Origin: Promethearchaeota archaeon
GTDB taxonomy: Archaea; Asgardarchaeota; Lokiarchaeia; Sigyniarchaeales; SOKP01
Direction of reading: 5' to 3'
Length of the DNA: 64,000 nt
NCBI GenBank assembly: GCA_019057865.1
Contig: JAHLWP010000007.1
Span: 75,005 to 139,004, forward strand
Below are positions 3,657 through 57,891 of the stretch, one piece after another. A program made the position numbers and the translations under genes. The notes under the pieces are model-generated. The model was not told where the DNA came from, did no database searches, and saw nothing but the letters and a program-made list of their open reading frames with translations. Position 1 is the first letter of the stretch. Each line of letters opens with the position of its first letter.

Positions 3657-6071
3657 CTATATTTCATCTAACTTAGCTTTATCTATTGCTTTTTCTTTTC
3701 TTGAAATAGGTTTTGTATATTCTTCTGGACGAATTGGGCCTAAATTTTCTAATTCTTCTTTGAATTCAGTTATTATTTGAGCAAATTTTTCTCCTTCTCC
3801 AGCAGATATACTAGTAATTTTAACACGATTCTCATATATCCCTGTCTCCGCTAACATTTGCTTAATACTTTCATAACGTGTTGTTGCTTTTTTAAATCCT
3901 TCTTGATAATGACAATCTTGAGGATAACATCCAGCAATTAAAACACCATCTGCACCATAAAAAAAACTCTCAAACACTAAAGAGGGATTCAACATTGCAG
4001 TACACATTACATGAATAATTCTTACATTTGTAGGGTAAGTTAATTTACTTATACCGGCAAGATCTGCCCCCAGATAGGAACACCAATTACAAAGAAAAGC
4101 AATAATAAGTGGAAATTCTGATTTATCTTTTAATAATGAATTTATTTGGGCAGAGATCTGATTTTTCGTGAACCCCGGAATATATAGAGCATCAGTTGGA
4201 CACATTGCAGCACACGCTCCACATCCAGTACAATTTGCTTGAATAATATCTAAATGATTCTTTTCAATATTTAGTGCATTGAACATGCATATATTTTCAC
4301 ATAAACGGCATAAATCACATTTTTCCTCATCAAAACACACTACATGTGGATCTAATTCTACTTTCTTTTTAGAGATTAAACTAATTACTTTAGCAGCTGC
4401 GCTTTCTGCTTGAGCAATACTACTTGGAATATCTTTTGGTCCCTGAATTGCCCCAGCTATATATATCCCAAAAATAGAACTTTCAGAAGGATTTACTTTT
4501 AAATGCTTTTCTAATAAAAAACCATAAGGACCTTGAGAAATGCCTAAAATTTGACTTAATTTGTCTGTATTTTCTGCTGGCTCAATACCTACTGCTAAGA
4601 CTGCTAGATCTGTTTTATTTTCAAATAAAGCATCTTCAGTAACATCTTCTCCTCGAATAATTAACTCTTCAGATGTATCACTCTTTAATATTGCTGATAT
4701 ATTACTTCTAATAAACCGTATTCCAAAAACTTCACGTGCCCTGTTATAGAATTCTTCACAATTCTTGCTAATAGATCTAATATCTGTGTAATAAATATTA
4801 ATTTTAATATCAGGATATTCTTTCTTTAGTAAAATTGCTTGTTTTATTGCAACATTACAACAAACCTGACTACAATATTCACGATGAATCTTTTTATTTC
4901 GTGATCCAACACATAATACAAATGATACCTTCTTTGGTGGTTGACCGTTGGAAGGTCTTATGATTCTTCCATGGGTGGGGCCATCATTATTAAATAATCG
5001 TTCCATTTGCATTGTTGTAATTACATCAGAATATTTTTGATAATTTAATTCTCCTAAAATGGATGGATCAAATATCTTTAATCCAGTTGCTACGATTATT
5101 GTACCAACTGTAATATCTAAAAATTCCGGTTTTTGGTCAAAATCAATTGCAAGTCTATCTCCACACGCTTGAGAGCACGCTTTGCATCCTATGCAATACT
5201 CCTCTAAAATATATGGAAATAGGGGAATAGCCTGTGGATATGGAACATCTATAGCCTTTCTTGGGAAATATGTATCCACTATATCAATAGGGCACACATC
5301 ACGGCAGATATCAACACAACCTACACAATTTTCTTCCACGATAAATCTTGGTTTCTTTTTAATAGAAACATTAAAATTACCAACATATCCCTCAACTTTT
5401 TCTACCTCAGAATAAGTTAATAATTCGATATTAGGATGATCTTTAACTTCCGTCATTAATGGTCCAAGAATGCAGATCGAACAATCTAAAGTGGGGAAAG
5501 TTTTATCGAATAGAGCCATATGGCCCCCTATAGTAGGTTCCTTTTCTACAAAATACACTTTATAGCCAGCATCAGCTATAACCATAGCCGCTTTTATCCC
5601 CGCAATACCTCCACCGATTATTAAGCAGGATGGTAGTACACTTGAATATTGGACTTCTAAAGGTTTTAAGAGTTTAACTTGTTCTATTGCCATATTAATT
5701 TGATCAATTGCTTTTTTTGTAGCTTTCTCTGGTTCATTGGCATGGACCCATGAATTTTGTTCCCTTATATTTGCAAAAGATATTAAAAATCGATTAATTC
5801 CTGCTTTTTCGATAGTTTTTCGAAATAAAAGTCCGTGTAATTTAAATGAACATGCTGCAATAACAACACGATCGATTTTTTTTTCTTTAATTTCTTCAAT
5901 AATTTTGTTTAAACCTAATTCTGAGCATAAGTATTGATCTCCAATAACATGAATTTCTGAATAATTGTTGAAGTGTTCGATTAATCTATTATTGTCAATA
6001 ACACCTGAGATATTCCTACCACAATCACACAAAAAAAGTCCTATTTTCAATTTGAGACCTCTTATAAACAC
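3657..6071 (-). CDS. hdrA: Heterodisulfide reductase subunit A fused to a C-terminal MvhD/FlpD domain
   Basis: LFLCDCG, AACS, NIREQ, IGGGIAG, DKTFPTLDCSIC, CVGSR, YCSQVCC, GPKDIP, ferredoxin motifs; C-terminal FLCNWCSYLGAD...GADGVLIAGC..DCHY (MvhD). Confidence 0.93.
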   Translation of the reverse strand: MFIRGLKLKIGLFLCDCGRNISGVIDNNRLIEHFNNYSEIHVIGDQYLCSELGLNKIIEEIKEKKIDRVVIAACSFKLHGLLFRKTIEKAGINRFLISFANIREQNSWVHANEPEKATKKAIDQINMAIEQVKLLKPLEVQYSSVLPSCLIIGGGIAGIKAAMVIADAGYKVYFVEKEPTIGGHMALFDKTFPTLDCSICILGPLMTEVKDHPNIELLTYSEVEKVEGYVGNFNVSIKKKPRFIVEENCVGCVDICRDVCPIDIVDTYFPRKAIDVPYPQAIPLFPYILEEYCIGCKACSQACGDRLAIDFDQKPEFLDITVGTIIVATGLKIFDPSILGELNYQKYSDVITTMQMERLFNNDGPTHGRIIRPSNGQPPKKVSFVLCVGSRNKKIHREYCSQVCCNVAIKQAILLKKEYPDIKINIYYTDIRSISKNCEEFYNRAREVFGIRFIRSNISAILKSDTSEELIIRGEDVTEDALFENKTDLAVLAVGIEPAENTDKLSQILGISQGPYGFLLEKHLKVNPSESSIFGIYIAGAIQGPKDIPSSIAQAESAAAKVISLISKKKVELDPHVVCFDEEKCDLCRLCENICMFNALNIEKNHLDIIQANCTGCGACAAMCPTDALYIPGFTKNQISAQINSLLKDKSEFPLIIAFLCNWCSYLGADLAGISKLTYPTNVRIIHVMCTAMLNPSLVFESFFYGADGVLIAGCYPQDCHYQEGFKKATTRYESIKQMLAETGIYENRVKITSISAGEGEKFAQIITEFKEELENLGPIRPEEYTKPISRKEKAIDKAKLDEI

Positions 6072-6180
6072 TAAATTTTCGCAATCTTATGAATAATATA
6101 AAGTTGAATTAATATTAATTATTCTAATAATTAGTATAAGATAATCTTGACTTTTCGTAATTATAAAGAAGAACTATGAA

Positions 6181-6786
6181 TTACCTATTAGTTATATCAT
6201 TAGGTAGAAATTTATATACTTTAAATATATTAAAATCATTTTTCTTCATTTTCATGAAAAAATTCTTCTCCATCTCATATTCTTGTTTTGCCCATTTTAT
6301 AATATCATCTTTAGAGTAAAAATATCCTTGGTTCTCAAGAGATTTTTGAAGAGCGGGACATCTTTTTGAATAGTCTTTAAAGTTTCTTAAACTATTTATA
6401 AGCATATTCCAACCAATAGGAAAAGCTCTACATTGGAAAGGTCTAGCTGTATGAACAGTACATTTATTATCCTTTAAAAAATGGCAATGTTCATCGTTAC
6501 CAGTAAATTTAAATCCTAATGTCTTAAATCGATAAGTTTTACCTTTTTTAGTTTTTGGATTCCTCCAAAAGAAGGTATCATTTATTATTTTCAAATACTT
6601 TTTAGTAAATTCTCTCAAACCAGATATTCCTTTTAGATTTAAATGATTGGCAAGCGTTTTAATGTCATTTTTATATAAAAATACTTCGCCTTCGCCTAAT
6701 CCTCTACAACAAGTGCCACACATCTTGCAGGAAAAGAAAATTCCATTCTCAAACTTTTTAGAGATTTTAATCTCAGTTGAGGTCAA
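6181..6786 (-). CDS. YkgJ-family cysteine-cluster protein (CxxCxxCC)
   Basis: FSCKMCGTCC ... CHFL...CTVHTARPFQCRAFP. Confidence 0.85.
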   Translation of the reverse strand: MTSTEIKISKKFENGIFFSCKMCGTCCRGLGEGEVFLYKNDIKTLANHLNLKGISGLREFTKKYLKIINDTFFWRNPKTKKGKTYRFKTLGFKFTGNDEHCHFLKDNKCTVHTARPFQCRAFPIGWNMLINSLRNFKDYSKRCPALQKSLENQGYFYSKDDIIKWAKQEYEMEKNFFMKMKKNDFNIFKVYKFLPNDITNR

Positions 6787-6901
6787 AACTATAATTTATC
6801 TTTTTGTTGTTGGTTTTTAAATAATATACAAATATTTAATTAATATTTAAATATTAATTCATTGATTATTTTAGGCAATAATGAAAGAGGAGTTTTAGTT
6901 T

Positions 6902-9151
6902 TTGGTCAGGAATTTAACCATAAATGAATATGTAGATCTTGATCTACAAATTATAAATAAAAAAGTAAAGCAGTTTGAAAGAATTTTAATTAAAAATGAG
7001 ATTCACATCGATAAAAGATTTATTAAATGGATTAAAGACTTTAAAAAGATATATGGGAGTAGATACGCAAATTTACAGTTATATATTGTTTTATCTTTAC
7101 TTTATTTATTAAGCCTTGAATTTATTCATAATTATATTCTAAAAAATGAAACCCCTTTATTTAAACAAAAAAATCCCATAAAAAAATATAAAAGAATAAT
7201 AGGACAAGTAGAAGCCATTTATAGAAATATTGAAATTTTTGAATTTGATTATTTTGAACCAATCTTATCATTCTCTGTAAGAGAAGATGCTATTATTTTG
7301 CGGGAACTCATTGAAATATTGTCCAATCACGTGTTAAATTTAAAAATTGACCCTGAATACTTATTTGATTATCTGATACAAAAAATAATATCTCCTATTA
7401 TAAGACATAAAATTGGTGAATATTATACTCCTCCTTTTTTAGTTAAAATAATGGTCCATGAAGTTTATTCATTTGGAGATACAGTCCTCGATCCTTGTTG
7501 TGGGTCTGGGAATTTTTTAGTTGAAATCTTAAGATATATAAATTCACAAGATAGGAGTAATGAAGAGAAAATAAGCGCAATCAATCGAATATATGGGTAT
7601 GACATCAATCCTATCTCAATCTATTTTTCAAAAATTAACTTTTTATATATTTTAAGGGAAAAAGGTCCTTTAATTAAATTCCATTTATATGTTCTTGATT
7701 TTTTATCCCAAAAAGGGAGTAAGTTGGATACAAAATTTGACTTAGTAATAGGAAATCCTCCATGGTATACATATAGAGACATAGAATCAGTATATTATCA
7801 AAAGCAAATTAAATCTTTAGCAGAAAATTTAGAAATAAAACCACTTCCTAAAAATGTTTTAAATTTAGAAGTCTCTACTCTCTTTTTTTATAAAGCAAAT
7901 AAGGTTTTTATGAAAAAAAATGCGAAAATATTTTTTGTAATTACTAAAGGAGTAATCACAGGTTCCCATGCTTCTCAATTTCGTAATTTCAAAGGTTTTT
8001 ATAATTTAAAGATTTGGACTTTTGATAAAAAGATTGAAAATGTTTTTAACATTGATTTTATTTGTTTGTTTGCTCAAAAATCTGAAATTGAATTTGAATA
8101 TTATGATAAAGAGATTCCTTCTTTACATTTTAAGATTAATGATAAAGCCAATGATATAAATTATTTTTCTCATATAGAATTAAAACAGGAAAAAATTAAT
8201 TATTTAATACCCTATTGCGTTGAAATAAAAGGTGAAAAAAGATATCCAAAAAAATTTATTCTAAAAGAAAGATATGAAGAATTATTCTGTATTAGACCTA
8301 GCTATTATAAAAAACAATTTCACAAGGGTGCTGATTTAAACCCAAGAAATTTAATATTCATTAAATATAAAAAAGTAGATGATAAATTAGTAAGAATTAA
8401 TCCTGATGAGAGAATTTTTAAAAGAGCCAAATTCCCTTGGAATAAAAATGAATTTAAAGATGAACTTGTTGAAAAAGAATATCTTTTTAAAGTAATTAAA
8501 AGTACAGAATTGGTAAAATTTTTTGTCTGTAATTATTATTATGTTTTTCTACCACTCTCAAAAAAAGATTTTAGTTTTAATTATTCAAGTTTATCTAAAA
8601 ATGCTAAATGCTTTTATGATAAAATTAATGAAATTTATTTGAATTATAAGAAGGAAACTACAAAAAACAATTCTTTAATGGATAACTTAAATAGATGGTC
8701 AAAATTGATTAATAATAGACAACTCTCAGAGATTAAAGTGATCTACAACAATTCAGGTTCAGTATTGAATTCTGCAGTTGTACAAGGGAATTTCATAATA
8801 ACAGGAGATTTGAGTTTTTATGCTACTCAAAATCTTGATGAGTCATATTATTTATCAACCATATTAAATTCTACGATAATGACAAATCAAGTTCAAATAA
8901 TGAAAAGTTCAAGACATATTTTTAAAATTCCCTTTGATATCCCTATTAAAACATTCAATCCAAATAACCAGAATCATCAAAAGTTAGTTAAATTAGGAAA
9001 AAGAGGAGAAGATATAGCAAAAAATACAGTCGATAAATTCCTCAAAAATAATAATTTTTCCAAAATAAAAATTCAAAATGTATTGTATGCAGAGTTAGGT
9101 AATATTTTAACTCAAATTGATGAAATTTTAAAGAATGAATTTGAAGAATAA
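6902..9151 (+). CDS. N6-adenine DNA methyltransferase with C-terminal target-recognition region (type IIG/HsdM-like)
   Basis: GEYYTPP, VLDPCCGSGNFL (motif I), YGYDINP, DLVIGNPPW (motif IV), YLSTILNS in the C-terminal region. Confidence 0.88.
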   Translation: MVRNLTINEYVDLDLQIINKKVKQFERILIKNEIHIDKRFIKWIKDFKKIYGSRYANLQLYIVLSLLYLLSLEFIHNYILKNETPLFKQKNPIKKYKRIIGQVEAIYRNIEIFEFDYFEPILSFSVREDAIILRELIEILSNHVLNLKIDPEYLFDYLIQKIISPIIRHKIGEYYTPPFLVKIMVHEVYSFGDTVLDPCCGSGNFLVEILRYINSQDRSNEEKISAINRIYGYDINPISIYFSKINFLYILREKGPLIKFHLYVLDFLSQKGSKLDTKFDLVIGNPPWYTYRDIESVYYQKQIKSLAENLEIKPLPKNVLNLEVSTLFFYKANKVFMKKNAKIFFVITKGVITGSHASQFRNFKGFYNLKIWTFDKKIENVFNIDFICLFAQKSEIEFEYYDKEIPSLHFKINDKANDINYFSHIELKQEKINYLIPYCVEIKGEKRYPKKFILKERYEELFCIRPSYYKKQFHKGADLNPRNLIFIKYKKVDDKLVRINPDERIFKRAKFPWNKNEFKDELVEKEYLFKVIKSTELVKFFVCNYYYVFLPLSKKDFSFNYSSLSKNAKCFYDKINEIYLNYKKETTKNNSLMDNLNRWSKLINNRQLSEIKVIYNNSGSVLNSAVVQGNFIITGDLSFYATQNLDESYYLSTILNSTIMTNQVQIMKSSRHIFKIPFDIPIKTFNPNNQNHQKLVKLGKRGEDIAKNTVDKFLKNNNFSKIKIQNVLYAELGNILTQIDEILKNEFEE

Positions 9152-43037: not shown

Positions 43038-45920
43038 TTACTCAATCACTTCCATAGGTTTTCCGTGATGTTCTGGGATTTGCTGAGCACCACAAGATGC
43101 ACCCATCCAACAGACTAACTGGTCACCTTCCTTATGCATAGGCTTACCACAATGCATTGGAAGTTCTTGTTCTACTCCACATTCCACACATTTTAATTTT
43201 CCCATTTTTTTATCAACCTCTTTTTTATTTACAGATTTAACATACTTTTCATTAATACTTTTCATTTGCATTAATTTGGGATTCATATTATCATAATTCT
43301 TAAATCTTTCTGGATCACGTTTAAAGTGAGTTTCACAGTTAGGATTACAAAAGTGATATAGTTTCCCCTGATATTCATACTCAATAGCGCGTCTTGGATC
43401 AATTTCCATTCCGCATACAGGATCAATTACTTTTTCTTGAGATACAAGTAAACGTTCCTCTTCAAGTTGTTGAGGTGTTTTTGGTTCGAATCTTTTTAAG
43501 AACAAAGCATTGGTCACCACAGAAACAGAACTAGTAGCCATGAAAACTGCTGCTAAATAAGGAGGTAAAAAGAATCCTGTTAATCCATATAAAATACCCG
43601 CCGCAATAGGAAGTCCTATGATATTATAAATAAATGCCCAAAATAGATTCGTAATCATTTTTTTATACGTTTTTTTAGATAAATTAATAGCAGAAACCAC
43701 ATTTCTAAGGTCACCTCGCATTAGAACGATATCTGCAGTCTCAATTGCTACATCCGTACCAGATCCAATAGCAATGCCTACATCTGCTTGGGCTAAAGCT
43801 GGTGCATCATTAATTCCATCACCTACCATACCCACAATTTTGTGATCACCCGATTTTTGTAGTTTCTGTATAGTTAAAGCTTTATCATTTGGAAGAACCT
43901 CTGCTAATATGTGTTCCTCGTCAATTTTTAACTGATTTCCTATACTTAACGCGGTTTGCATATTATCACCAGTTAGCATATAAATGCTTAATCCAATTTC
44001 TCTTAATTTATTTAAAGCGTATGGAGCTTGATCTTTAATCTTATCAGAAATTCCTATAATTCCTCTAACAACATTTTCTATACTTACTAAGATTGTCGTT
44101 ATTCCTTTTTGCTGAAATTCTTCAAATTTGTCCTTGTATTTAAAGATCGAAATATTGTTTTCAATCATTAATTTTTCATTCCCAATCAATACTACTTTTC
44201 CTTTAATGTTAGTTCTGATACCTTTACCAAGGATAGCATCAAATTCAGTCGGAGCTTCAAGAGATAACCCTCTTTGATTTGACTCCTCGATAATTGCTTT
44301 TCCAATTGGATGTTCAGAGCCCATTTCTGCGCTCCCAGCATAAAATAAAAGTTCTTTTTCGTCATAACCTTTTCCAGTTAAATCTTTTTCAGCAAAAATT
44401 ACCGAAACTTTTGGTTTTCCAACGGTTAAAGTGCCAGTTTTATCGAATACGACTGTATTAATAGTATTAATGGATTCTAAGGAATCTCCACCTTTAATTA
44501 ATAAGCCACTTTCAGCACCTTTGCCAGTACCAACCATTACAGCGGTTGGAATTGCCAATCCTAAGGCACAGGGACAAGCAATAACTACAACTGAAGTGAA
44601 TACTAATAAAGATGTCTCAAGTTGAGTTGCTTCGAGTGCTGGATATAATTGAGTACCAATGAAATACCAATAAAGAAACGCGCTAACAGCAATAATAATG
44701 ACTATAGGTACGAAATAATTACTAATTTTGTCAGCTAATTGCTGCTTAGCAGCTTTTCGACTTTGAGCTTGTTTTACAAAATTGATGATTTGAAATAATA
44801 ATGTATCTTTTCCAACTTTTTCAGTTATCATATGAATTAAACCAGTTTGGTTTACTGTTGCCCCAATTACTTCACTATCAAGCTCTTTTTTAACATATTT
44901 ACTTTCTCCTGTAATCATAGATTCATCTATTTTAGTTTTTCCCACAATTACTCTCCCATCAACTGGAATTTTTTCTCCTGGTCTGACAACTAACACGTCT
45001 CCAACTTCAATTTCTTCAATAGGAATCTCTATTTCCTCGCCATCTTTTAAGATTGTTGCGGTTTTCGGTTGCAATCCTACTAATTTTTTTATAGCTTCAG
45101 ATGTCTGCCCTTTAGTCTTATGCTCAAGGTATTTTCCAACTAATAAAAAAGTGATTATCAAACTCATTGCTTCATAAAACACTTTTCCTGATATAAAGAA
45201 AGTGGTCATTATTGAGTAAATAAGTGCAGTCGTTGTCCCTAAAGCAACTAACACATCCATGTTAGTAGTTTTATTTTTTAATGATTTATATGCTCCGATT
45301 AAAAAAAACGACCCTGAAATAACGTAATTTGTTATCCCCAAAAAGAAAAGAAGGATGTTTCTTTCAAACGATTCTGTCACAAACCAACTTATAGGTGCAA
45401 TTATTAGTGAAAATATTAATGATATTGCCATGATGCGTAATCGATATCTCATTTCTTTCTTATGTTTTATAATTTCCATGTCCATAGCTCCAGCAGATTT
45501 CTCAATGTTATAATCTAGTTGTTTAACTTTAGAATATACTTGGTTTTCATCTATAACTAATTCATTAAATTCAATGAACATCTTAGATGCTTTATAATTT
45601 CCCCTGATGTCATGAATTCCTTCGACCTCTTTTATACTATTAATAAAAATTTCAAATTCATTTTCTGAAAGTTTATCTACAACTCTTATATCGATTTTGG
45701 CTAAGGATGCCTTGTAACCAAGATCTCGAATTGCTTCTTTAAAGTTATTGAAATTAGTTATATTTGGATCATATTTGACTGTCGCTTCTTCATTAGCAAA
45801 ATTAACAACTGCATTCTTCACACCATCAAGACTACTCAATTTATTCTCAATTTTTAAGGCACAATTAGCACATGTCATTCCACCAAGCTTAATATTTACA
45901 TTTTCTTTTGTTTCTGCCAT
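43038..45920 (-). CDS. copA: Cu(I)-exporting P1B-1 ATPase with N-terminal HMA, C-terminal YHS/TRASH and an extra Cys/His/Met domain
   Basis: GMTCANC, TGES, CPC, DKTGT, HP, GDGIND, YN, MATSS; DPVCGM...YHFCNPNC. Confidence 0.95.
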
Positions 45921-46534
45921 TAAAAATCACCTTTTTTCATATTTCTAGATAACAAATTTAATAATTATACCTTTTGTTTATATTTTGAAAGATTTTTAAA
46001 TCATATTTTTTGAGACTTGTAAAAAAATCTTATAGATTTGTTATTTTTTAAAAATAAAATTTAGAATAAAACCTGATTACTTATAAACAATTAAAATAAC
46101 ATATTTTTTTCATAACATTTTTTTAAAAATTTTTTTAAAAATCTTAAACTTTCTTCTTACAATAAATATTTCTATAAACTTAATTTTTTTTTAAATTTCT
46201 AAAAACTTTTATCTCATTTTATAGTTTCTTGTTTCAAAATGAAAATTTAATAATACACCCTCCACCTTGATTCTAATTGTCAATTATTGAGTTATTATTA
46301 AAAAAATCCGAGATTGAAACAAAAGTCTCTATTTTTTAGTTTATAAAATTATTTTGACGTAATATTTAAAATTATGTAGTAAAGGTGTTCTTAAAACTAT
46401 TATAAACCCAGAATAATAATTTTTTTACAACCTTTATCAGGTTGCTTAGTTCTACTCCTTTGTAGTTAATAAGAAGATATGAAAAAGAAAATAAAATGAT
46501 AATAATTAACTAAATTATCTCAATTTTTTATTTC

Positions 46535-48715: not shown

Positions 48716-48931
48716 TTAATCTAATCCAATGTGTTCAATTACATTTCTAAGTTTTTGAGCAGATTTTTTAAAGTAATCTTCTTCTTTCAAGTTTAGGGCA
48801 ATTTTCAACACACGCGATACACCTAATTTGTTTATAATCGCAGGTAAACCTAAATAGACTTTGTTTATGCCTAAGTAGTTTCTTTTAAAAAGGAGTCTAA
48901 CGCGGAGAGAAAGCCGGATATTAATTATCAT
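48716..48931 (-). pseudogene. C-terminal remnant of a lactate/malate dehydrogenase
   Basis: YLGINKVYLGLPAIINKLGVSRVLKIALNLKEEDYFKKSAQKL matches the LDH/MDH C-terminal pattern; no Rossmann domain upstream. Confidence 0.7.
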
Positions 48932-49910: not shown

Positions 49911-50252
49911 TTAAATTTCACTTCCGCAAAATGGACAATATTTTTGTGTTCTTTCATCGAGTTTTTCTCCACAATTAGGACAGAAATAAGCATTTTCACT
50001 TTTCAGTTTTTCTTCAATTCCTTTATCTGATGTAATTCTCTGTAAATTTCGAGTTTCTATTTTATTAGATTTTTCATTGTTATATGCTTCTTGATGTGAG
50101 ATGTCTGTTAAATTATCCTGACGAGTTCTTCGAGATAGAAGATATAAAAGAATTACAGCAATTATAACAAAAAGACTGACTCCTAAAATCATGTAGAACC
50201 ATCCATTTGAACCCCAATCCATCATACCATCATGACCATAATCTAACATCAT
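49911..50252 (-). CDS. Single-TM protein with N-terminal His/Met motif and C-terminal zinc ribbon
   Basis: GHDGMMDW, one TM, FCPNCG...YCPFCG. Confidence 0.75.
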   Translation of the reverse strand: MMLDYGHDGMMDWGSNGWFYMILGVSLFVIIAVILLYLLSRRTRQDNLTDISHQEAYNNEKSNKIETRNLQRITSDKGIEEKLKSENAYFCPNCGEKLDERTQKYCPFCGSEI

Positions 50253-50272: not shown

Positions 50273-50569
50273 TTAATTTCTATTTCCATTTGCTTTTTTA
50301 TTTAAATGGCTTTCTTCATAATTTCCTCTGACAAGTAAATAAACTAATAACCCTAATACATTAAAAATTAAGGATATTATTAGCCACACTTCAGAATTGC
50401 CAATTCCTCTCCTAATGGCATCTTTATGGACATAATAGGCAATTGTAACACTAAATATGATATAAAGACTTATTCCTAATACCATAACGAGCCATAGATA
50501 GGGACCAAATATACTATACCACCAATCCATCATGTGAAAATCTCCATCATGAAAGCTATCGAAAATCAT
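50273..50569 (-). CDS. Small membrane protein (PLDc_N-like) with N-terminal His/Met motif
   Basis: FHDGDFHMMDWW; YVHKDAIRRG...WLII..IFNVLGLLVYLLVR. Confidence 0.75.
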   Translation of the reverse strand: MIFDSFHDGDFHMMDWWYSIFGPYLWLVMVLGISLYIIFSVTIAYYVHKDAIRRGIGNSEVWLIISLIFNVLGLLVYLLVRGNYEESHLNKKANGNRN

Positions 50570-50613
50570 TTTACCACCTATTTTAACAAGTTTTATTAAA
50601 GTATTATCTTAAG

Positions 50614-50635
50614 ATATATATGTAAAAGTATGTAT
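50614..50635. promoter_or_regulatory. Putative operator, copy 1, overlapping a minus-strand TATA box
   Basis: ATATATAT-gtaaaa-GTATGTAT followed by TTAAA; flanks match those at 56305-56360. Confidence 0.6.
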
Positions 50636-50956
50636 TTAAAAATTATTATTATAAAATATATATAATTAGAAAATTCTATGTAAGTGTATTTATTTTTATA
50701 GAGCTAATATTTAATTTTTTAAAAGGAGGATAAATGTGAATAGTTATTTAAGATTATAACCTAAGGAGTATGAATCATATTAAGTATAATGTTAATTTAT
50801 AGAAAGAGTCTTTTTTTTTTTAAAAATATATAGATTAAAGTATTATTTCAATTACAATTTATTTCTACTAATTGATTTGACAATATTAATTTATATTTCT
50901 GTATTTATGGATTTTTTACATATTATGGGATTCTTATTTTTCTAATTTCACCACAA

Positions 50957-51040
50957 CTACAGATCTACTGCTTCTAATCCTTCTCGAAATGCTAAAAATG
51001 TTGGAATTAAAAAATCCACAAATGAACCTTGTAAAATCAT
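50957..51040 (-). pseudogene. 5' remnant of an FTR1-family iron permease
   Basis: MILQGSFVDFLIPTFLAFREGLEAVDL-stop; REGLE is the FTR1 TM1 signature. Confidence 0.65.
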
Positions 51041-51062
51041 ATTAGTTTTCTTTTTTTTAATG

Positions 51063-51272
51063 TTAATTGATTTTATAATTACGTACTTTTTTACTGCAGA
51101 TTGGACATTTATAATAATAGGTCTTATATTTTCTTTTTCTTCCCATAACTGTCTCTGTATTTATGATTCTTTCTTTCACACATTTCAAGTGGAAATTATT
51201 AATACAATCTGGGCATTGGAAAATTTGATCTTCTTCGCCTATAAATTTATCATAATATTTGCATTTATGCAT
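51063..51272 (-). CDS. Small PHD/RING-variant-like zinc finger (C4HC3 spacing, second Cys replaced by Tyr)
   Basis: CKYY...CPDC.NNFH.KC...CPIC. Confidence 0.6.
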   Translation of the reverse strand: MHKCKYYDKFIGEEDQIFQCPDCINNFHLKCVKERIINTETVMGRKRKYKTYYYKCPICSKKVRNYKIN

Positions 51273-51291
51273 AGTTAATTCAAATTTTAGA

Positions 51292-51972
51292 CTATTTTGG
51301 CTTAGATATTATTACTCGTATAATTCCAGCAGGATCAAGGGACCATTCATGAATTACACTAAATCCTGCTCTTTCAAGGTTGTTTAATGTGTTTCTAGTG
51401 AGGTGAAATCCCCGCATATTAGCTGTTATTGGATCAAATGCTCTCATGAAGATGTTTAATAATTTGGAATTGCTTATTCCATGCTCAATTTGAACAAATT
51501 TCCCTGATGATTTCAATACCTTAGCTATTTCTTGAAGACCTTTTAATGGATCAGGAACTGAACAAAAAACACAAGTAGAAGTTATGAAGTCAAAAGAATT
51601 TGGTTCAAAATAATTATTTAATTTTTGAATATCCCCTATAACAAAGTTTTTAATATTATGAAGCTCTAATCTTTTTACTTTCATTTTAGTTTGACGGATC
51701 ATCTGTGGGCTCCAATCAAAAACAGTAATATTTGCAGAAGGATGGTAGTATTTTAAATTTTCTCCAGTTCCTACACCAACTTCGAGTATTTTTCCTCTTA
51801 ATAATGAAAAAATAGTTCTTCCTTTCGAAAATAAACGCTCCATAAGTGAATTCATTATATCATAAGTAGGAGCTTGTCTATCATATATTTCTAATATGGG
51901 ATCTATATCTGACATTGTTTTGAAACCTCTAAAAAGTTTATTCTTAGTTTTATTTGAGACATTTTTCCGCAA
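51292..51972 (-). CDS. Class I SAM-dependent methyltransferase (true start may be ATG at 51915)
   Basis: ILEVGVGTG, FDFITSTCVFCSVPDP, LKSSG, IEHG. Confidence 0.88.
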   Translation of the reverse strand: MRKNVSNKTKNKLFRGFKTMSDIDPILEIYDRQAPTYDIMNSLMERLFSKGRTIFSLLRGKILEVGVGTGENLKYYHPSANITVFDWSPQMIRQTKMKVKRLELHNIKNFVIGDIQKLNNYFEPNSFDFITSTCVFCSVPDPLKGLQEIAKVLKSSGKFVQIEHGISNSKLLNIFMRAFDPITANMRGFHLTRNTLNNLERAGFSVIHEWSLDPAGIIRVIISKPK

Positions 51973-52011
51973 CCTGATTTTTAAGATAGTCTAAAAATTT
52001 ATTACTCTAAA

Positions 52012-52033
52012 ATATATATGAATAAGTATATAT
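52012..52033. promoter_or_regulatory. Putative operator, copy 2
   Basis: ATATATAT-gaataa-GTATATAT followed by ATAAA, upstream of the minus-strand methyltransferase. Confidence 0.55.
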
Positions 52034-52064
52034 ATAAATGTATATATTATAATTTTATAGTTAT

Positions 52065-52232
52065 TTATAAAATTCTAATTGGGGCAGATTCTTTATCATC
52101 ATGCTTTATTGTTTTTACAATGGTGTAATTATCAATTTTAGGATCAAAGTTAAAATATTTTTCACATACCTTACAGTATAATCTTTTATTTTTTGGAATT
52201 AATATATTATCACAATATGGGCAGAATCTCAT
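52065..52232 (-). CDS. TFS/RPB9-like N-terminal zinc ribbon only (55 aa; truncated or short paralog), not in ORF track
   Basis: MRFCPYCDNILIPKNKRLYCKVCEKYFNFDPKIDNYTIVKTIKHDDKESAPIRIL. Confidence 0.6.
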   Translation of the reverse strand: MRFCPYCDNILIPKNKRLYCKVCEKYFNFDPKIDNYTIVKTIKHDDKESAPIRIL

Positions 52233-52309
52233 AATTTCCCTTTATAAAATATAATTATATTCTCTATTTGTATATATTTTTAGACAATGTTTTAAGAAAA
52301 TTTTGAAAG

Positions 52310-52867
52310 TTAAATAAAGCGCCTAACTTTTTTACGATATTTATTATACTCATCTTTGAACTGTTCTTTTAACCATGGTTCTTCTGTAAACGGAGTAAGA
52401 AAATTCCACAAAATTCCTAAAATGCCTGTAATCAAAGTTAAAAAGGAATTAGCTAGTATTATCAATCCGGCAAATAATAAAATATCGGCTAAATATTGGG
52501 GATTTCTTGAATATTTATAGGGCCCATCTGTGACTAATTTCCCTTTTAACCCGAGGGTCAAGTGAATACTTAAAGTTCTTACTCCCCAGATCGCAAAAAA
52601 TAATCCCACAACTATTAATGATAACCCAATTGGGTACCGAGACCAATGTAATAAAATAAAATTATCCCAATCCAAAATACTTAATGTAATTGTTCCTAAG
52701 AAAGAAATTATTGATACAATCCATGATATCCAAAATTGCCATGAATCTTTGTTTGGTGGAGGCCATATCCTATATTTTGGTTTGATTATTGTGAAAATAA
52801 GCCCTCCCACAAGTAATATATCTGCAATAACAGTCATAATAAATATTAAAATTGTTAAAGATCCCAT
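52310..52867 (-). CDS. PEMT/ICMT-family membrane methyltransferase
   Basis: LVTDGPYKYSRNPQY, EEPWL..QF..EY..Y...V.RFI. Confidence 0.88.
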   Translation of the reverse strand: MGSLTILIFIMTVIADILLVGGLIFTIIKPKYRIWPPPNKDSWQFWISWIVSIISFLGTITLSILDWDNFILLHWSRYPIGLSLIVVGLFFAIWGVRTLSIHLTLGLKGKLVTDGPYKYSRNPQYLADILLFAGLIILANSFLTLITGILGILWNFLTPFTEEPWLKEQFKDEYNKYRKKVRRFI

Positions 52868-52963
52868 AATTCTTACACCCCCTTATTTTAAACCTATTTT
52901 TTTAATAAATGATATATTTTTCCATTCTTTCTTCAAGTTCTCTTCACTTAACCTGTTAAATCA

Positions 52964-53266
52964 CTAAGATAATAATAAATCCCCTAAAGGAATATCAAGT
53001 TCAATTTCAGAACTCTTTATTTTTCTCACAAATTTCCTAAAACCATAATCATTAAATATCAATTCTAGAAAGTTTTGATAGAGCGCTTCTATATTATCCA
53101 TACCTATTTTGATAAAAAGATCGTTCTCTTTAGAAGCAATGATACTTAGAATTGCATAAAGCCCTTTTATCGATCTTTTAAGATTCTCAAAGTTATTAAT
53201 TGCTTTTTGAGTTGACTCTCTCGTAAATTTTGTTATAATAATAGTTATCACACCCCAATTAATCAA
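52964..53266 (-). CDS. Hypothetical protein, coupled to the upstream TRASH-like gene
   Basis: 100-aa ORF overlapping 53263-53496 by 4 nt; start uncertain. Confidence 0.55.
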   Translation of the reverse strand: MINWGVITIIITKFTRESTQKAINNFENLKRSIKGLYAILSIIASKENDLFIKIGMDNIEALYQNFLELIFNDYGFRKFVRKIKSSEIELDIPLGDLLLS

Positions 53267-53496
53267 AATTGATTAGAATTGTTTTCTTTAACTATTTCTG
53301 TTTCATAAATTGAAAGGCACCTAGAACAACAGAAATATAACATTTTTTCGTCTTTATCTTTATACGTTGGTGCAGATAAATGTACAGGAATTCCCATACC
53401 CCATAATGTACAATATTCATGCACATCTGCATCAGATCTTATAGTTTTACTACAAATTGGACATAATTTCTCTTTCAAAAATATAACCTCCATCAA
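53263..53496 (-). CDS. TRASH/YHS-like metal-binding protein
   Basis: CPIC...YCTLWGMGIP...LYFCCSRC; GGAGGT RBS suggests a start a few codons downstream. Confidence 0.65.
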   Translation of the reverse strand: MMEVIFLKEKLCPICSKTIRSDADVHEYCTLWGMGIPVHLSAPTYKDKDEKMLYFCCSRCLSIYETEIVKENNSNQF

Positions 53497-53544
53497 TCAA
53501 TTCAACTTTTAATATTTATAAAAAAAATTAATTATTTTTAATAA

Positions 53545-53709
53545 TTAAATAAAATTCATTTGTAGACCACAATGCTCAGGGATGGGTTGAACACCACAGT
53601 GAGATCCCATCCAACAGACTAGTTTATCGCCTTCTTTATGCATAGGTTTACCACAATGCTGTGGTATATCCATTTCATAACCACACTTAGAACACTTTAA
53701 CTTTTCCAT
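53545..53709 (-). CDS. Small Cys/His/Met-rich putative metal-binding protein (54 aa), not in ORF track
   Basis: [54 protein letters not shown]; 27 nt after the copA stop. Confidence 0.85.
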   Translation of the reverse strand: MEKLKCSKCGYEMDIPQHCGKPMHKEGDKLVCWMGSHCGVQPIPEHCGLQMNFI

Positions 53710-53736
53710 AATATTTTACCATTTTTTTTTAATTTT

Positions 53737-56250
53737 TTATTTATTCGTCTTGTAATTTGGAAGTATATTCGACCTACGAAGCAGATTAGCATTTGTTACT
53801 ACAGTTACCGAACTTGTAGCCATGGCAACCTCTGCGATTAATGGGTGAGCTAATCCTAACATAGCAGCAGGTAATGCCACTACATTATAAAAGAAGGCCC
53901 AAAACAGATTCTGTTTGATTTTCTTGAAAGTATTTCTAGATAATTTTATTGCTGAAACAACTCCAGATAAATTCCCACTAACTAATGTAATATCGGCGGA
54001 TTCAATTGCAATATCTGTTCCGGTACCAATTGCAATTCCTACATTGGCCGCTGTTAAAGCAGGAGCGTCATTTATTCCATCGCCCACCATAGCTACTAGT
54101 TTTCCATTTTCTTGTAATCTTTGAATCTCATTAACTTTTTCATCAGGTAATACCTCAGCTATAACTTTTGAAATGCCTATTGCTTTTGCTATTGCTTTTG
54201 CAGTGAGTTCATTATCTCCTGTTAACATCACTGTTTCAATTCCCATACCTTCCAACTCCCTAATAACTTCAATAAAATCGTCTTTAATTGTATCTGCTAT
54301 TGCTAAGATTCCAACCATTTTCCCGTCGACAGCTAATAATATAACTGTTTTTGCTTCTTTTTCAAGAGATTCAATATCTCCCTCCATAAAATGATATTCG
54401 ATTTGAAATTCTTGCATTAATTTCCGATTCCCTACAAGGATTAATTTTTCCGGAGTTGTTTTAATCTTTGCTTTTACACCTCTTCCAGTTAGAGATTCAA
54501 ACTCTATTAAATCGTAATATTCAATATTTTTTTCTTTTGCCTTTCTTAAAACTGCATCAGCAAGAGGATGCTCGGAACCTGCTTCTACACTCGCTGCAAA
54601 CTGAAGTACTTCTTCGAATGTAAAACCCTCAGCAAAACGTATATCAGTTACTTCGGGTGATCCTTTAGTAATCGTTCCCGTTTTATCAAAAACAATAGCG
54701 TCAATACTTTTAAGGGTTTGAATTGCCTCACCGTGTCTTATTAAGATTCCATGTTCCGCTCCCATACCACTGCCAACCATGAGTGCGGTAGGTGTTGCTA
54801 GTCCAAGCGCACAGGGGCACGCTATGATAAGCGTTGCGATTAATGCAAGTAATGCTAATGTTATTACTCCAAGATTTGGATCCACCCATGGTATGAATGA
54901 TTGAACCCCATTAATCACTATATCCATAACGTTAGGTAAAAACATCCATAAAAGAAAAGCAGCACTAGCTAATATTAACACTACAGGAACAAAATAATTG
55001 GTGATGGTATCAGCAAACTTTTGTATGGGAATTTTAGAACCTTGGCATTCCTCGACCATTTTAATAACCTGGGACAAAAATGTGTCTTCTCCTACCTTTG
55101 TAGCTTTAATCTTCAACATTCCACGTTGATTGATTGTCGCCCCTATAACTTCATCTCCAACTTTTTTCTTCACAGGCATAGATTCGCCAGTTGCCATAGA
55201 CTCATCAATAGCACTTTGTCCTTCGATAACAATACCATCAGTAGGAATTTTTTCTCCTGGTTTGACAAACATTATATCGTTTTCTTTTAATTGTTCAATA
55301 GGGATTTCTATTTCTTCTCCATCGATTATGATTCTAGCACTCTTTGCTCCAAGTTCTAGCAATTTTCTGATTGCTTGTGATGCTCTTCCTTTTGCTTTAG
55401 TTTCAATATACCTTCCAGTTAAATGAAAGGACATTATCATAGCAGCAACACCAGAATAATTAAAAATCGGACTAAAAAAGGACATTGGACCTGTTATAAA
55501 TGCTGAAATCGTTCCTAAAGCTATTAACACATCCATATTCGCATTACGATGCCTAATGGCTTTAAATGCGGAGTAATAGGTATTGTATCCTGCCCAAAAA
55601 AGTGGAAATATTGATAACAATATGATCCCTAAACTATATAATTCTTCATTAGGCCAATATATTCCCCCAATCATTTCCAACAACATCCAGCCAATAATTG
55701 GTCCAGTAAAGACCCAAGAAAGTTTCATTCGCTTTTTAGCTATCTTAAATTTTTTTTCTTCCGCTTCAACTTCCTTATCATATTTTGATTTAATTGACTC
55801 TTCTTCTTCCTTTCCGAGTGTTGTATAACCAGTATTATTAATTATCCTAGCAATATCATTATATTCTAGTCCATCTACATCGTAAATTACAACTGCTTTT
55901 TCAGTTGCGATATTAACACTTGCATTCAAAATACCATCGCTTTTTTTAAGAGCAGTCTCAACAGTTTGGGCACAAGATGCGCAAGTCATACCTTTGATTT
56001 TAATGGTAATTTTTTTTGAGTTTGTAGTTGCTTCATACCCTGTGTTTTTCACAATTTCTAAGATTTCTGATTTCTTTATCTTATCAGGATAATAAGTAAG
56101 ATATGCTTTTTCAGCAGCTAAATTAACATTTACATCATTTATTCCTTCATGTTTATTTAATGCTTTAGCAATTGTCTGAGCACATGAAGCACAATGCATT
56201 CCTTGAATATTTAGAACAGTTGTTTTTCCTTGTTCAATTTTTTCTATCAT
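53737..56250 (-). CDS. copA: Cu(I)-exporting P1B-1 ATPase with two HMA domains
   Basis: GMHCASC, GMTCASC, TGES, CPC, DKTGT, HP, GDGIND, YN, MATSS. Confidence 0.95.
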
Positions 56251-56309
56251 ATTTAATTCTCTTCTCCATCAATTATTTCTAGTCAATTTTAAAGAAATGT
56301 TATTTTAAG

Positions 56310-56331
56310 ATATATACGTCAGAGTATATAT
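56310..56331. promoter_or_regulatory. Putative operator, copy 3: perfect 8-bp inverted repeat between copA and its divergent regulator
   Basis: ATATATAC-gtcaga-GTATATAT, overlapping the minus-strand TTTAAATA box. Confidence 0.7.
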
Positions 56332-56441
56332 TTAAATGTTGTTATTATAAAATATATATTTATAAATTATAATCACTATTAATAATACAGTGAATTTCTA
56401 TTATAAACCAAAGAATTTATGAATTTAAGGAGTGTTTTTAA

Positions 56442-56876
56442 TTGAGTGATATTAAAATTCAAAATCTAACAAAATTTTATACCTTAACGTTATTGAAATC
56501 TAAAAAATCAGTTACTGGGTATTATATCATAAAGCGACTCGAATCGGATTTAGGGAAAACGGCAAGTCCAACCTACATATATGATTTCTTGAATAAACTC
56601 CAATCAGAAGGATATATCGAACACACCCCTAATCCAAAATCAAAAAAATCAAAAGGATTTCAATTAACTTCTTCAGGGAAACAATTTATTGATAATATTT
56701 TCAAACGATTTGGCAATTTAATAGAAGCTGCTATAGAATCAAAATTGAAAATATGTGCAAGCTGTGGTGTAAAACTTTATGAAGATTTTCATGTTGAAAC
56801 AATTGGAGGAAAAGAGATGAATTTTTGCTGCAAACATTGCGCAAAAGCATATATAAATTCTCACCATGAAAAATAA
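56442..56876 (+). CDS. PadR-family winged-helix regulator with C-terminal TRASH metal-binding domain
   Basis: TGYYIIKRL...SPTYIYDFLNKLQSEGYI...FQLTSSGK (PadR); CASCG...FCCKHC (TRASH). Confidence 0.85.
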   Translation: MSDIKIQNLTKFYTLTLLKSKKSVTGYYIIKRLESDLGKTASPTYIYDFLNKLQSEGYIEHTPNPKSKKSKGFQLTSSGKQFIDNIFKRFGNLIEAAIESKLKICASCGVKLYEDFHVETIGGKEMNFCCKHCAKAYINSHHEK

Positions 56877-57507: not shown

Positions 57508-57891
57508 TTATATCTTTTTTTTCTCACGATATTTCTTGATAGCATCCTTCAATCCGTCGGCTGCTAAATTACTGCAATGCAGTTTAATAGGAGGTAAGCC
57601 GTCTAATGAATCCGCTACATTGCCTCGAGTTATTTTTGCAGCTTCCTCAAGGGTCTTACCTTTAGCTAATTCTGTTATCATAGATGATGTTGCAATTGCT
57701 GCTGCACAACCAAATGTTTGGAAAGATATATCATCAATTATTTCAGTGATTCCATCTTCTTTTACCTTTATATAAATATACATTAAGTCACCACACACAG
57801 GGTTTCCAACTTCTCCTACAGCATCAGCATCTTTCATTTCACCCATATTTCGAGGGTTTCTAAAGTGATCCATAACTTTTTCCGAATAAAT
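57508..57891 (-). CDS. iscU: Fe-S cluster scaffold IscU/NifU (first ATG at 57873; conserved YSEKV lies upstream)
   Basis: YSEKVMDHFRNPRN, GNPVCGD, FGCAAAIATSS, LPPIKLHCS. Confidence 0.95.
   Translation of the reverse strand: MYSEKVMDHFRNPRNMGEMKDADAVGEVGNPVCGDLMYIYIKVKEDGITEIIDDISFQTFGCAAAIATSSMITELAKGKTLEEAAKITRGNVADSLDGLPPIKLHCSNLAADGLKDAIKKYREKKKI

Follow-up and report, generated by a model that had tools for sequence, protein, structure and literature searches.

The bacterial copper repressor CopY consists of a BlaI/MecI-type winged helix followed by a C-terminal CxCx4CxC motif; it represses a copA-type operon via a short palindrome, from which it is released by Cu(I). The characterised archaeal copper regulator CopR (CopT), known from Sulfolobus, Pyrococcus, Thermococcus and Halobacterium, joins an Lrp-type helix–turn–helix to a TRASH domain, deletion of which lowers metal sensitivity in the Pyrococcus furiosus protein; the latter remains bound to DNA and stimulates copA under copper (PMC7830388). 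Regulators of the PadR family bind inverted repeats (ATGT-N8-10-ACAT) as dimers and autoregulate, and those of subfamily 2 dimerise through one C-terminal helix (PMC3506622). Here, we describe a copper island from a Promethearchaeota archaeon (assembly GCA_019057865.1, contig JAHLWP010000007.1, positions 75,005–139,004; these 64,000 nucleotides are referred to as the window and numbered from 1), in which a gene for a 144-residue protein that fuses a PadR winged helix to a TRASH-like cysteine motif (padR-TRASH) and three copies of a 22-bp palindrome lie among genes for copper pumps. An initial annotation of this DNA had contrasted the regulator with CopR, whose Lrp-type helix–turn–helix and TRASH architecture it gave in agreement with the literature. 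We consider it probable, with moderate confidence, that a dimeric PadR-TRASH repressor acts on the palindrome, is released by Cu(I) and thereby controls the island.

The pattern ATATATAY-N6-GTATRTAT, to which the initial annotation had drawn attention, matches exactly at 50614–50635 (site A), 52012–52033 (site B) and 56310–56331 (site C), with no fourth match in the 4,263,694 bp of the genome (29% GC) and none in 100 dinucleotide-preserving shuffles. All three matches fall within 5.7 kb of the regulator gene, beside the copper-pump genes. A symmetrised weight matrix of 38 columns, trained on 39 distinct sites 5′ of orthologous regulator genes taken from other genomes only, scores site C at 36.6 bits (the best-scoring site in the genome), site B at 31.6 bits and site A at 29.3 bits. 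The genome-wide runners-up score 14.9 and 14.4 bits, leaving a gap of 14 bits below the weakest window site; the 14.9-bit match is itself a tandem copy at 52026–52047 that has a half-site in common with site B. Such confinement to one locus sets the motif apart from common promoter features and settles the question of genome-wide frequency that the initial annotation had raised.

Site C (ATATATAC-GTCAGA-GTATATAT) lies between the divergent copA and padR-TRASH genes and is, as had been reported, a perfect palindrome with inverted arms of 8+8 bp. Site A reads ATATATAT-GTAAAA-GTATGTAT, while operator B extends over 52012–52047, of which 52012–52033 is ATATATAT-GAATAA-GTATATAT and the remainder belongs to the weak tandem copy (52026–52047), which has the distal arm of site B in common with it; none of the three operators is assigned to a strand. 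The similarity noticed in the flanks was borne out by alignment to site C, which extends over 73 bp at 82% identity for site A and 64 bp at 75% identity for site B, and TTATTATAAAATATATAT is identical in the flanks of sites A and C. A padR pseudogene beside site A was sought as the source of the common flank and none was found. The region distal to operator A (50636–51062, ∼430 bp) contains no open reading frame of 40 or more residues and no padR remnant, and its beginning repeats the TTATTATAAAATATATAT block found in front of padR at site C; an unannotated small RNA or micro-ORF, expressed from the divergent half of the module, could lie here.

Conservation of the element was followed in 57 orthologous loci fetched from public genomes. 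A search of 24 genomes of the same genus yielded PadR-TRASH orthologues in 13, and at least two further genera have them. A palindrome with at most two mismatches lies 67–143 nt 5′ of the aligned padR-TRASH start at 44 of the 49 loci in which PadR-TRASH identity is 58% or more, with the arms kept and the six central bases free to vary, so that the check upstream of orthologues proposed in the initial annotation came out in its favour. A MAFFT alignment of 25 whole orthologous intergenic regions, made blind to the motif, returned TATATA[C/T]-N6-[G/A]TATATATTTAA as the sole invariant block. Among genomes G000–G024, the pattern is matched in 13 of the 14 that carry the regulator, each scored site reaching at least 24.9 bits, and no scored match exceeds 15 bits in the 11 that lack it, two further matches there being left unscored; these genomes are kin, and the co-occurrence is accordingly not an independent statistic. 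With one mismatch allowed, the reversed pattern used as a control is almost as frequent as the true pattern (32 versus 45 matches), so that at this level the extended matrix alone discriminates. One-mismatch matches outside the copper loci of relatives were considered as extra regulon members and rejected, since they fall within coding sequences, with scores below 12 bits.

These results bear on whether the palindrome might be a core-promoter module, with TATA and B recognition elements (BRE) placed back to back, that was copied along with the genes of the island, or else the site of a different factor. Its arms are TATA-like, TATA-like boxes occur in both flanks and the copies have 64–73 bp in common. 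A generic module would be common, however, yet there are three copies in 4.26 Mb, set apart by the 14-bit gap; the inner C/G positions of the arms are conserved despite a genome of 29% GC, with the spacer drifting; and strong sites were found only in genomes with the regulator, where they nearly always adjoin padR-TRASH. We regard this reading as very unlikely.

The TATA-like box that the initial annotation saw overlapping each site has a constant geometry: a canonical archaeal TATA box, read in the sense of the target, lies over the arm distal to the gene, with a 3-nt overlap. It is TTTAAATA at site A (50633–50640), TTTATATA at site B (52031–52038) and again TTTAAATA at site C (56329–56336, in the copA sense), where the TATA-like box of copA (56329–56337, minus strand) also includes the palindromic ATTTAAAT at 56330–56337. 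The module common to the three window copies is polar. The TTAAA beside the distal arm is invariant in orthologues, and TTAAA..TTnTTATAA is retained on the side facing away from the target gene even where that side has no regulator gene. At L064-type loci the distance from palindrome to ATG is 35 nt, Shine–Dalgarno sequence included, so that the TATA box cannot be on the gene side. Because the TATA overlaps the distal arm at each target, the operator is placed between the TATA and the predicted transcription start; with predicted starts near 56306, 52008 and 50610 it would span roughly −27 to −6, which is the classic location for an archaeal repressor. The palindromic ATTTAAAT of the divergent site may also act in the promoter of the regulator itself; at L071, positions −31 to −24 relative to the ATG are occupied by ATTTAAAT, a spacing that would suit a leaderless mRNA. 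When TATA-like hexamers 5′ of Shine–Dalgarno-led starts were profiled across the genome, the distribution, which peaks around −50 to −70, was too broad to set a TATA-to-ATG distance and the approach was abandoned.

The same regulator and operator could instead constitute a copper-dependent activator or a dual regulator like CopR, which would stay on the DNA while the metal remodels the complex to admit TATA-binding protein (TBP) and transcription factor B (TFB). The behaviour of the Lrp-TRASH protein of P. furiosus under copper offers a precedent (PMC7830388), the palindromic ATTTAAAT beside the operator could work in both directions, and conserved AT-rich blocks 14–20 bp past the distal arm might act as auxiliary sites. 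Archaeal repressors, on the other hand, usually occupy just the position of this single 22-bp palindrome, over or immediately after the target-sense TATA, the PadR members in the literature consulted are ligand-released repressors (PMC3506622) and there is no sign of the octameric DNA wrapping of CopR. Activation of this kind therefore seems to us fairly improbable, and repression remains the direction that we favour.

The regulator gene (56442–56876, plus strand) starts with TTG behind an AAGGAG Shine–Dalgarno sequence. Its product comprises a winged helix (residues 15–83), a long helix (77–100) and then C105-x2-C108-x20-C129(C130)-x3-C133, the fusion of PadR to CxxC...CCxxC that had been described for the gene divergent from copA. 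Residues 15–83 match the Pfam PadR model (PF03551) with 39.2 bits (cut-off 27; E = 6.9e-10), and the model is also matched by all 33 family sequences used for comparison with Pfam and for cysteine conservation. Sequence matches in the Protein Data Bank (PDB) are PadR proteins (5x11 and 3elk, 2e-7). An AF2 model of the regulator (pLDDT 88) contains three helices, a two-strand wing, helix 77–100 and a small β-β-β-helix domain; a Foldseek search with the whole model gave Bacillus subtilis PadR on DNA (5x11), a subfamily-1 member, and LmrR as best structural matches, with the PadR part alone recovered. In the modelled structure, the protein has the winged helix and the C-terminal helix, used for dimerisation in the family, by which the PadR fold is recognised. 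Homodimer prediction scored 0.11 against a mark of 0.42, a value that counts neither way. The recognition helix reads SPTYIYDFL in the window genus, versus the usual S-x-IYP-x-L.

In the C-terminal domain, the spacing C105-x2-C108-x20-C129-x3-C133 agrees with the TRASH cysteine motif (C-x2-C-x19-22-C-x3-C), and C105, C108, C129, C130 and C133 are invariant in 33 of 33 sequences. TRASH_HVO_1752_C is matched by all 33 relatives (best E = 1.2e-6) and Ta0938 by 31, and a few match Arc_trans_TRASH, YHS or zf-FCS. A separate model of this domain (pLDDT 88) consists of a hairpin and a helix, for which Foldseek placed ribosomal eL24/Rlp24 on top (TM score ∼0.7, r.m.s.d. 1.5–1.9 Å), although with a weak E value of 0.08. 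The ribosomal protein eL24 is a member of the TRASH clan and a fold relative of TRASH. A BLASTP comparison of the cysteine domain with a 77-residue TRASH-like protein encoded nearby gave no match (E = 0.95). No Lrp/AsnC or RAM domain was matched in the regulator by Pfam, PDB sequence or Foldseek searches and the N-terminus is PadR; the protein is therefore not a member of the CopR family, though it probably does the same job. The PadR-TRASH family has 332 members at E ≤ 1e-3 in a collection of 5.8 billion proteins, all of them with generic names only, and no description of the architecture was found in the literature on PadR, TRASH, metalloregulators, Asgard archaea or HVO_1752.

A link to copper is suggested by the pumps. 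CopA and a second ATPase of 960 residues have HMA domains together with CPC and MxxSS motifs (P1B-1), CopB combines CPH and MSxST with an N-terminus rich in His (P1B-3), and all three score above the cut-off of TIGR01511. A search of the genome, which is 99.7% complete, with the two TRASH models matched only the regulator and the tail of the 960-residue ATPase, so that no other TRASH-bearing regulator came to light, and CsoR was likewise not found, which leaves PadR-TRASH as the only evident candidate sensor. It is conceivable that regulator and operator are real and respond to something other than copper (Zn/Cd, an organic ligand, or thiol or redox stress), the cysteine domain being a structural zinc finger. 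There are structural zinc binders among the TRASH-clan folds, and the weak Ta0938 and zf-FCS matches and the eL24-like fold fit such a role; the methyltransferases and the AhpD-like protein of the locus are not obviously tied to copper; and in one relative a strong site adjoins genes for a lactate/malate dehydrogenase-like protein and an apparent aldo-keto reductase. In each of these genomes, any pump found behind the operator is nevertheless of the copper type (CPC/MxxSS or CPH/MSxST), the accompanying microproteins bear His/Met and Cys motifs, and the fifth invariant cysteine, which forms a CC doublet, is more than a Zn(Cys)4 site needs. We consider a non-copper effector unlikely.

The regulon can be traced across the relatives, where 64 distinct sites score above 20 bits in the related loci and a called gene lies within 300 nt of 63. 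The first genes behind these sites are padR-TRASH (46 cases), the type of the 113-residue membrane protein HM113 (27), that of the 98-residue membrane protein HM98 (12), the 960-residue type of ATPase (11), copA (5) and copB (2); an HM113-type first gene is usually followed by a P1B ATPase, and the S-adenosylmethionine (SAM) methyltransferase of the window is found in five operons led by such sites. Small TRASH, zinc-ribbon and Cys/His proteins and a methyltransferase of the PEMT family also recur behind operators. In genome G022, separate operators precede a 960-residue-type ATPase, a PEMT–methyltransferase–zinc finger string, copA, a zinc ribbon–TRASH protein pair and a Cys/His protein–PEMT pair. 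Gene order around the operators is shuffled from genome to genome, yet the site has stayed with the same gene families, and nothing speaks more strongly for genuine membership of the methyltransferase and the microproteins in the regulon. The inclusion of both in the regulon, as proposed initially, is thus upheld by their recurrence behind the same operator in different gene orders; its extent had been drawn too narrowly, relatives adding the 960-residue-type ATPase, copB and the small TRASH, zinc-ribbon and Cys/His proteins. In most relatives the regulator is divergent from an HMMDW-type microprotein, which is followed by a pump; in the window, copA occupies the divergent position and the microprotein pair lies 5.7 kb off with an operator copy to itself, a layout that is a local variation.

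Compared with CopR/CopT, the locus has in common a C-terminal TRASH-type cysteine domain as the presumed copper sensor, a regulator gene divergent from copA and one intergenic site that serves, or here would serve, both promoters, with autoregulation (PMC7830388). It differs in the PadR scaffold, which takes the place of Lrp/AsnC; in the absence of a RAM or oligomerisation domain, so that a dimer is expected and not the DNA-wrapping octamer of CopR; in an AT-rich 22-bp palindrome at the TATA and predicted transcription start, compared with TTNNCAWWWTGNNAA upstream of the BRE in CopR; and in the likely direction of regulation, repression here and activation by CopR. The order of parts, an N-terminal winged helix, a dimerisation helix and a short C-terminal cysteine cluster, is that of CopY, although no homology is claimed: the two differ in winged-helix family, cysteine motif and fold (a putative TRASH treble clef here), operator sequence and domain of life. 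Among PadR proteins, the layout resembles subfamily 2 (LmrR, BcPadR1/2), in which a winged helix is followed by one long C-terminal helix (PMC3506622), up to residue 100. Unlike these proteins, PadR-TRASH carries an extra predicted metal-binding domain of ∼40 residues, its putative operator has TATATAC/GTATATA arms in place of ATGT/ACAT and serves archaeal TBP/TFB promoters, and its recognition helix is the derived SPTYIYDFL. What is new is that a putative sensor of the TRASH type known from archaeal CopR is carried on a PadR scaffold in a CopY-like layout; TRASH sensing itself was already known.

From the uniqueness and conservation of the motif, its occurrence together with the regulator, its placement with respect to the genes, the domain architecture and the copper-type pumps, we infer the binding of the protein to the DNA, its dimeric state, its effector and the direction of regulation. 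In the mechanism that we propose, the 144-residue PadR-TRASH would be both the metal sensor and the regulator of the copper island. By analogy with other PadR proteins, a dimer would be held together by the single long helix 77–100 in the subfamily-2 layout and would contact ATATATAC-N6-GTATATAT through its two winged helices. The bound dimer would block the binding of TBP/TFB or the recruitment of RNA polymerase, thereby silencing the string of genes from copA to the zinc ribbon, the methyltransferase/zinc-finger pair and the His/Met membrane-protein pair and, at the divergent site, the gene for the regulator itself. Cu(I), and probably Ag(I), bound to C105, C108, C129, C130 and C133 would lower the affinity for DNA and turn the regulon on.

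Several observations weigh against this proposal. The assignment of the TATA boxes, and hence of repression, follows from predicted transcription starts, and CopR, a characterised regulator with TRASH, works mainly by activation (PMC7830388). The TRASH matches of the window protein (TRASH_HVO_1752_C, Ta0938) are below threshold, at 21.4 bits against the Pfam cut-off of 27, and a four-cysteine treble clef could carry structural zinc instead of sensing copper. Two of the three pumps, CopB and the 960-residue ATPase, are encoded without an upstream site in the genome (best scores below −13 bits), in line with the earlier remark that no clear copy precedes copB or the other copA. Since the three window copies have 64–73 bp in common, their similarity may come partly from recent duplication and not from independent selection. 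Finally, the distant orthologues at L104–L111 (Freyarchaeia, Harpocratesius and contigs labelled Bathyarchaeia) are without the 22-bp palindrome. They are still divergent from copA and have AGATATATCT-like 10-bp palindromes in common, even in the GC-rich intergenic region of L108; at L105, two such copies lie 40 bp apart with a separate inverted repeat between them. These orthologues combine a different element with the canonical recognition helix, versus SPTYIYDFL in the genus of the window, a correlation that is suggestive, no more.

Apart from the regulator gene itself, the candidate target genes in the window are all on the minus strand. The ATG of copA (53737–56250) is 60 nt from operator C; its product, a P1B-1 Cu(I) ATPase, has two HMA domains with CPC and MxxSS and scores above cut-off for TIGR01511 and TIGR01525. 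Next in the string is a Cys/His microprotein of 54 residues (53545–53709), the orthologue of which in G022 has its own operator in front; it is similar to residues 906–959, the C-terminal tail, of the 960-residue ATPase. In the latter, the last ∼55 residues (window 43038–43205) correspond to this microprotein domain, and residues 831–875 form a YHS domain of the TRASH clan. A degenerate site 5′ of this ATPase, picked out by eye at 45966–45987, was rejected because it scores far below any threshold. The string continues with the 77-residue TRASH-like protein (53263–53496), which has CxxC...FCCxxC, a weak Pfam TRASH match and orthologues behind operators at L096, L049 and L050 and is possibly a CopM-type metallochaperone; a 100-residue protein without a family match (52964–53266); and a membrane methyltransferase of the PEMT/ICMT family (52310–52867; Pfam PEMT, E = 1e-17), paralogues of which lie behind operators in G022 (L049 sites 5028 and 16110; L052). 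It ends with a zinc-ribbon protein of 55 residues (52065–52232; Pfam Zn_ribbon_RPB9, E = 8e-6), the G022 orthologue of which is directly behind an operator.

Operator B is followed by the class I SAM methyltransferase (Methyltransf_11; 51292–51972), for which the nearest named models are PmtA, UbiE and ArsM, all below cut-off. Its true start is probably M20 at 51915, as the alignment of the G022 orthologue begins at residue 20, and it is found in operator-led operons at L077, L083, L090, L097, L102 and L049. The gene after it (51063–51272) encodes a PHD/RING-like zinc-finger protein of 69 residues, with sub-threshold Pfam matches and an 84% identical orthologue at the same position in G022. 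Behind operator A are the membrane proteins HM98 (50273–50569), with FHDGDFHMMDWW at its N-terminus and a PLDc_N-like hairpin, and HM113 (49911–50252), with N-terminal GHDGMMDW and a C-terminal zinc ribbon.

Further features adjoin these genes in the window and in its relatives. An AhpD-like protein is encoded further down the same gene string as the regulon members and, between its gene and copB, a 71-residue fragment (48716–48931) matches the C-terminus of lactate/malate dehydrogenase. An intact homologue of 319 residues adjoins a strong operator (30.2 bits) in G050 (L037, 218–1177), with no copper genes within 1.5 kb; a neighbour at the same site looks like an aldo-keto reductase. Just past the regulator gene, an IscU/NifU-like scaffold gene (57508–57873) is found that also adjoins padR-TRASH at L038, L041 and L053 and may tie the locus to Fe–S cluster repair under copper stress. 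The copper island of G022 additionally encodes, at L049, a 172-residue protein with a TRASH-like C-terminal end, CxxC...FCCxxC (7430–7948), and three paralogues with a common domain of ∼150 residues that belongs to no recognised family (5965–7065 and 8058–8639). Two of the three have an N-terminal zinc ribbon, and one pair is directly behind a 28.5-bit operator.

A wider reading, which we put forward tentatively and with low confidence, is that PadR-TRASH is the stand-in for CopR in the Asgard lineage and that copper also induces the two methyltransferases, one apparently soluble and PmtA/UbiE-like and the other apparently membrane-bound and PEMT/ICMT-like, as well as outward-facing His/Met microproteins, the latter being the most constant partners of the pumps. 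If true, copper would trigger a remodelling of membrane lipids or proteins that is not known to have been described in any organism. Asgard archaea are the closest prokaryotic relatives of eukaryotes and their gene regulation is almost unknown; no sequence-specific regulator–operator pair from this group was found described in the literature. The hypothesis that the locus offers is complete and ready for the bench: one protein of 144 residues with five cysteines as candidate ligands, one defined 22-bp site and a regulon of modest size, with comparative support from some 50 genomes. PadR would become one of the few scaffolds used for metal sensing, the TRASH module having been adopted by a second DNA-binding domain, and copper stress is connected with two methyltransferases and with uncharacterised microproteins.

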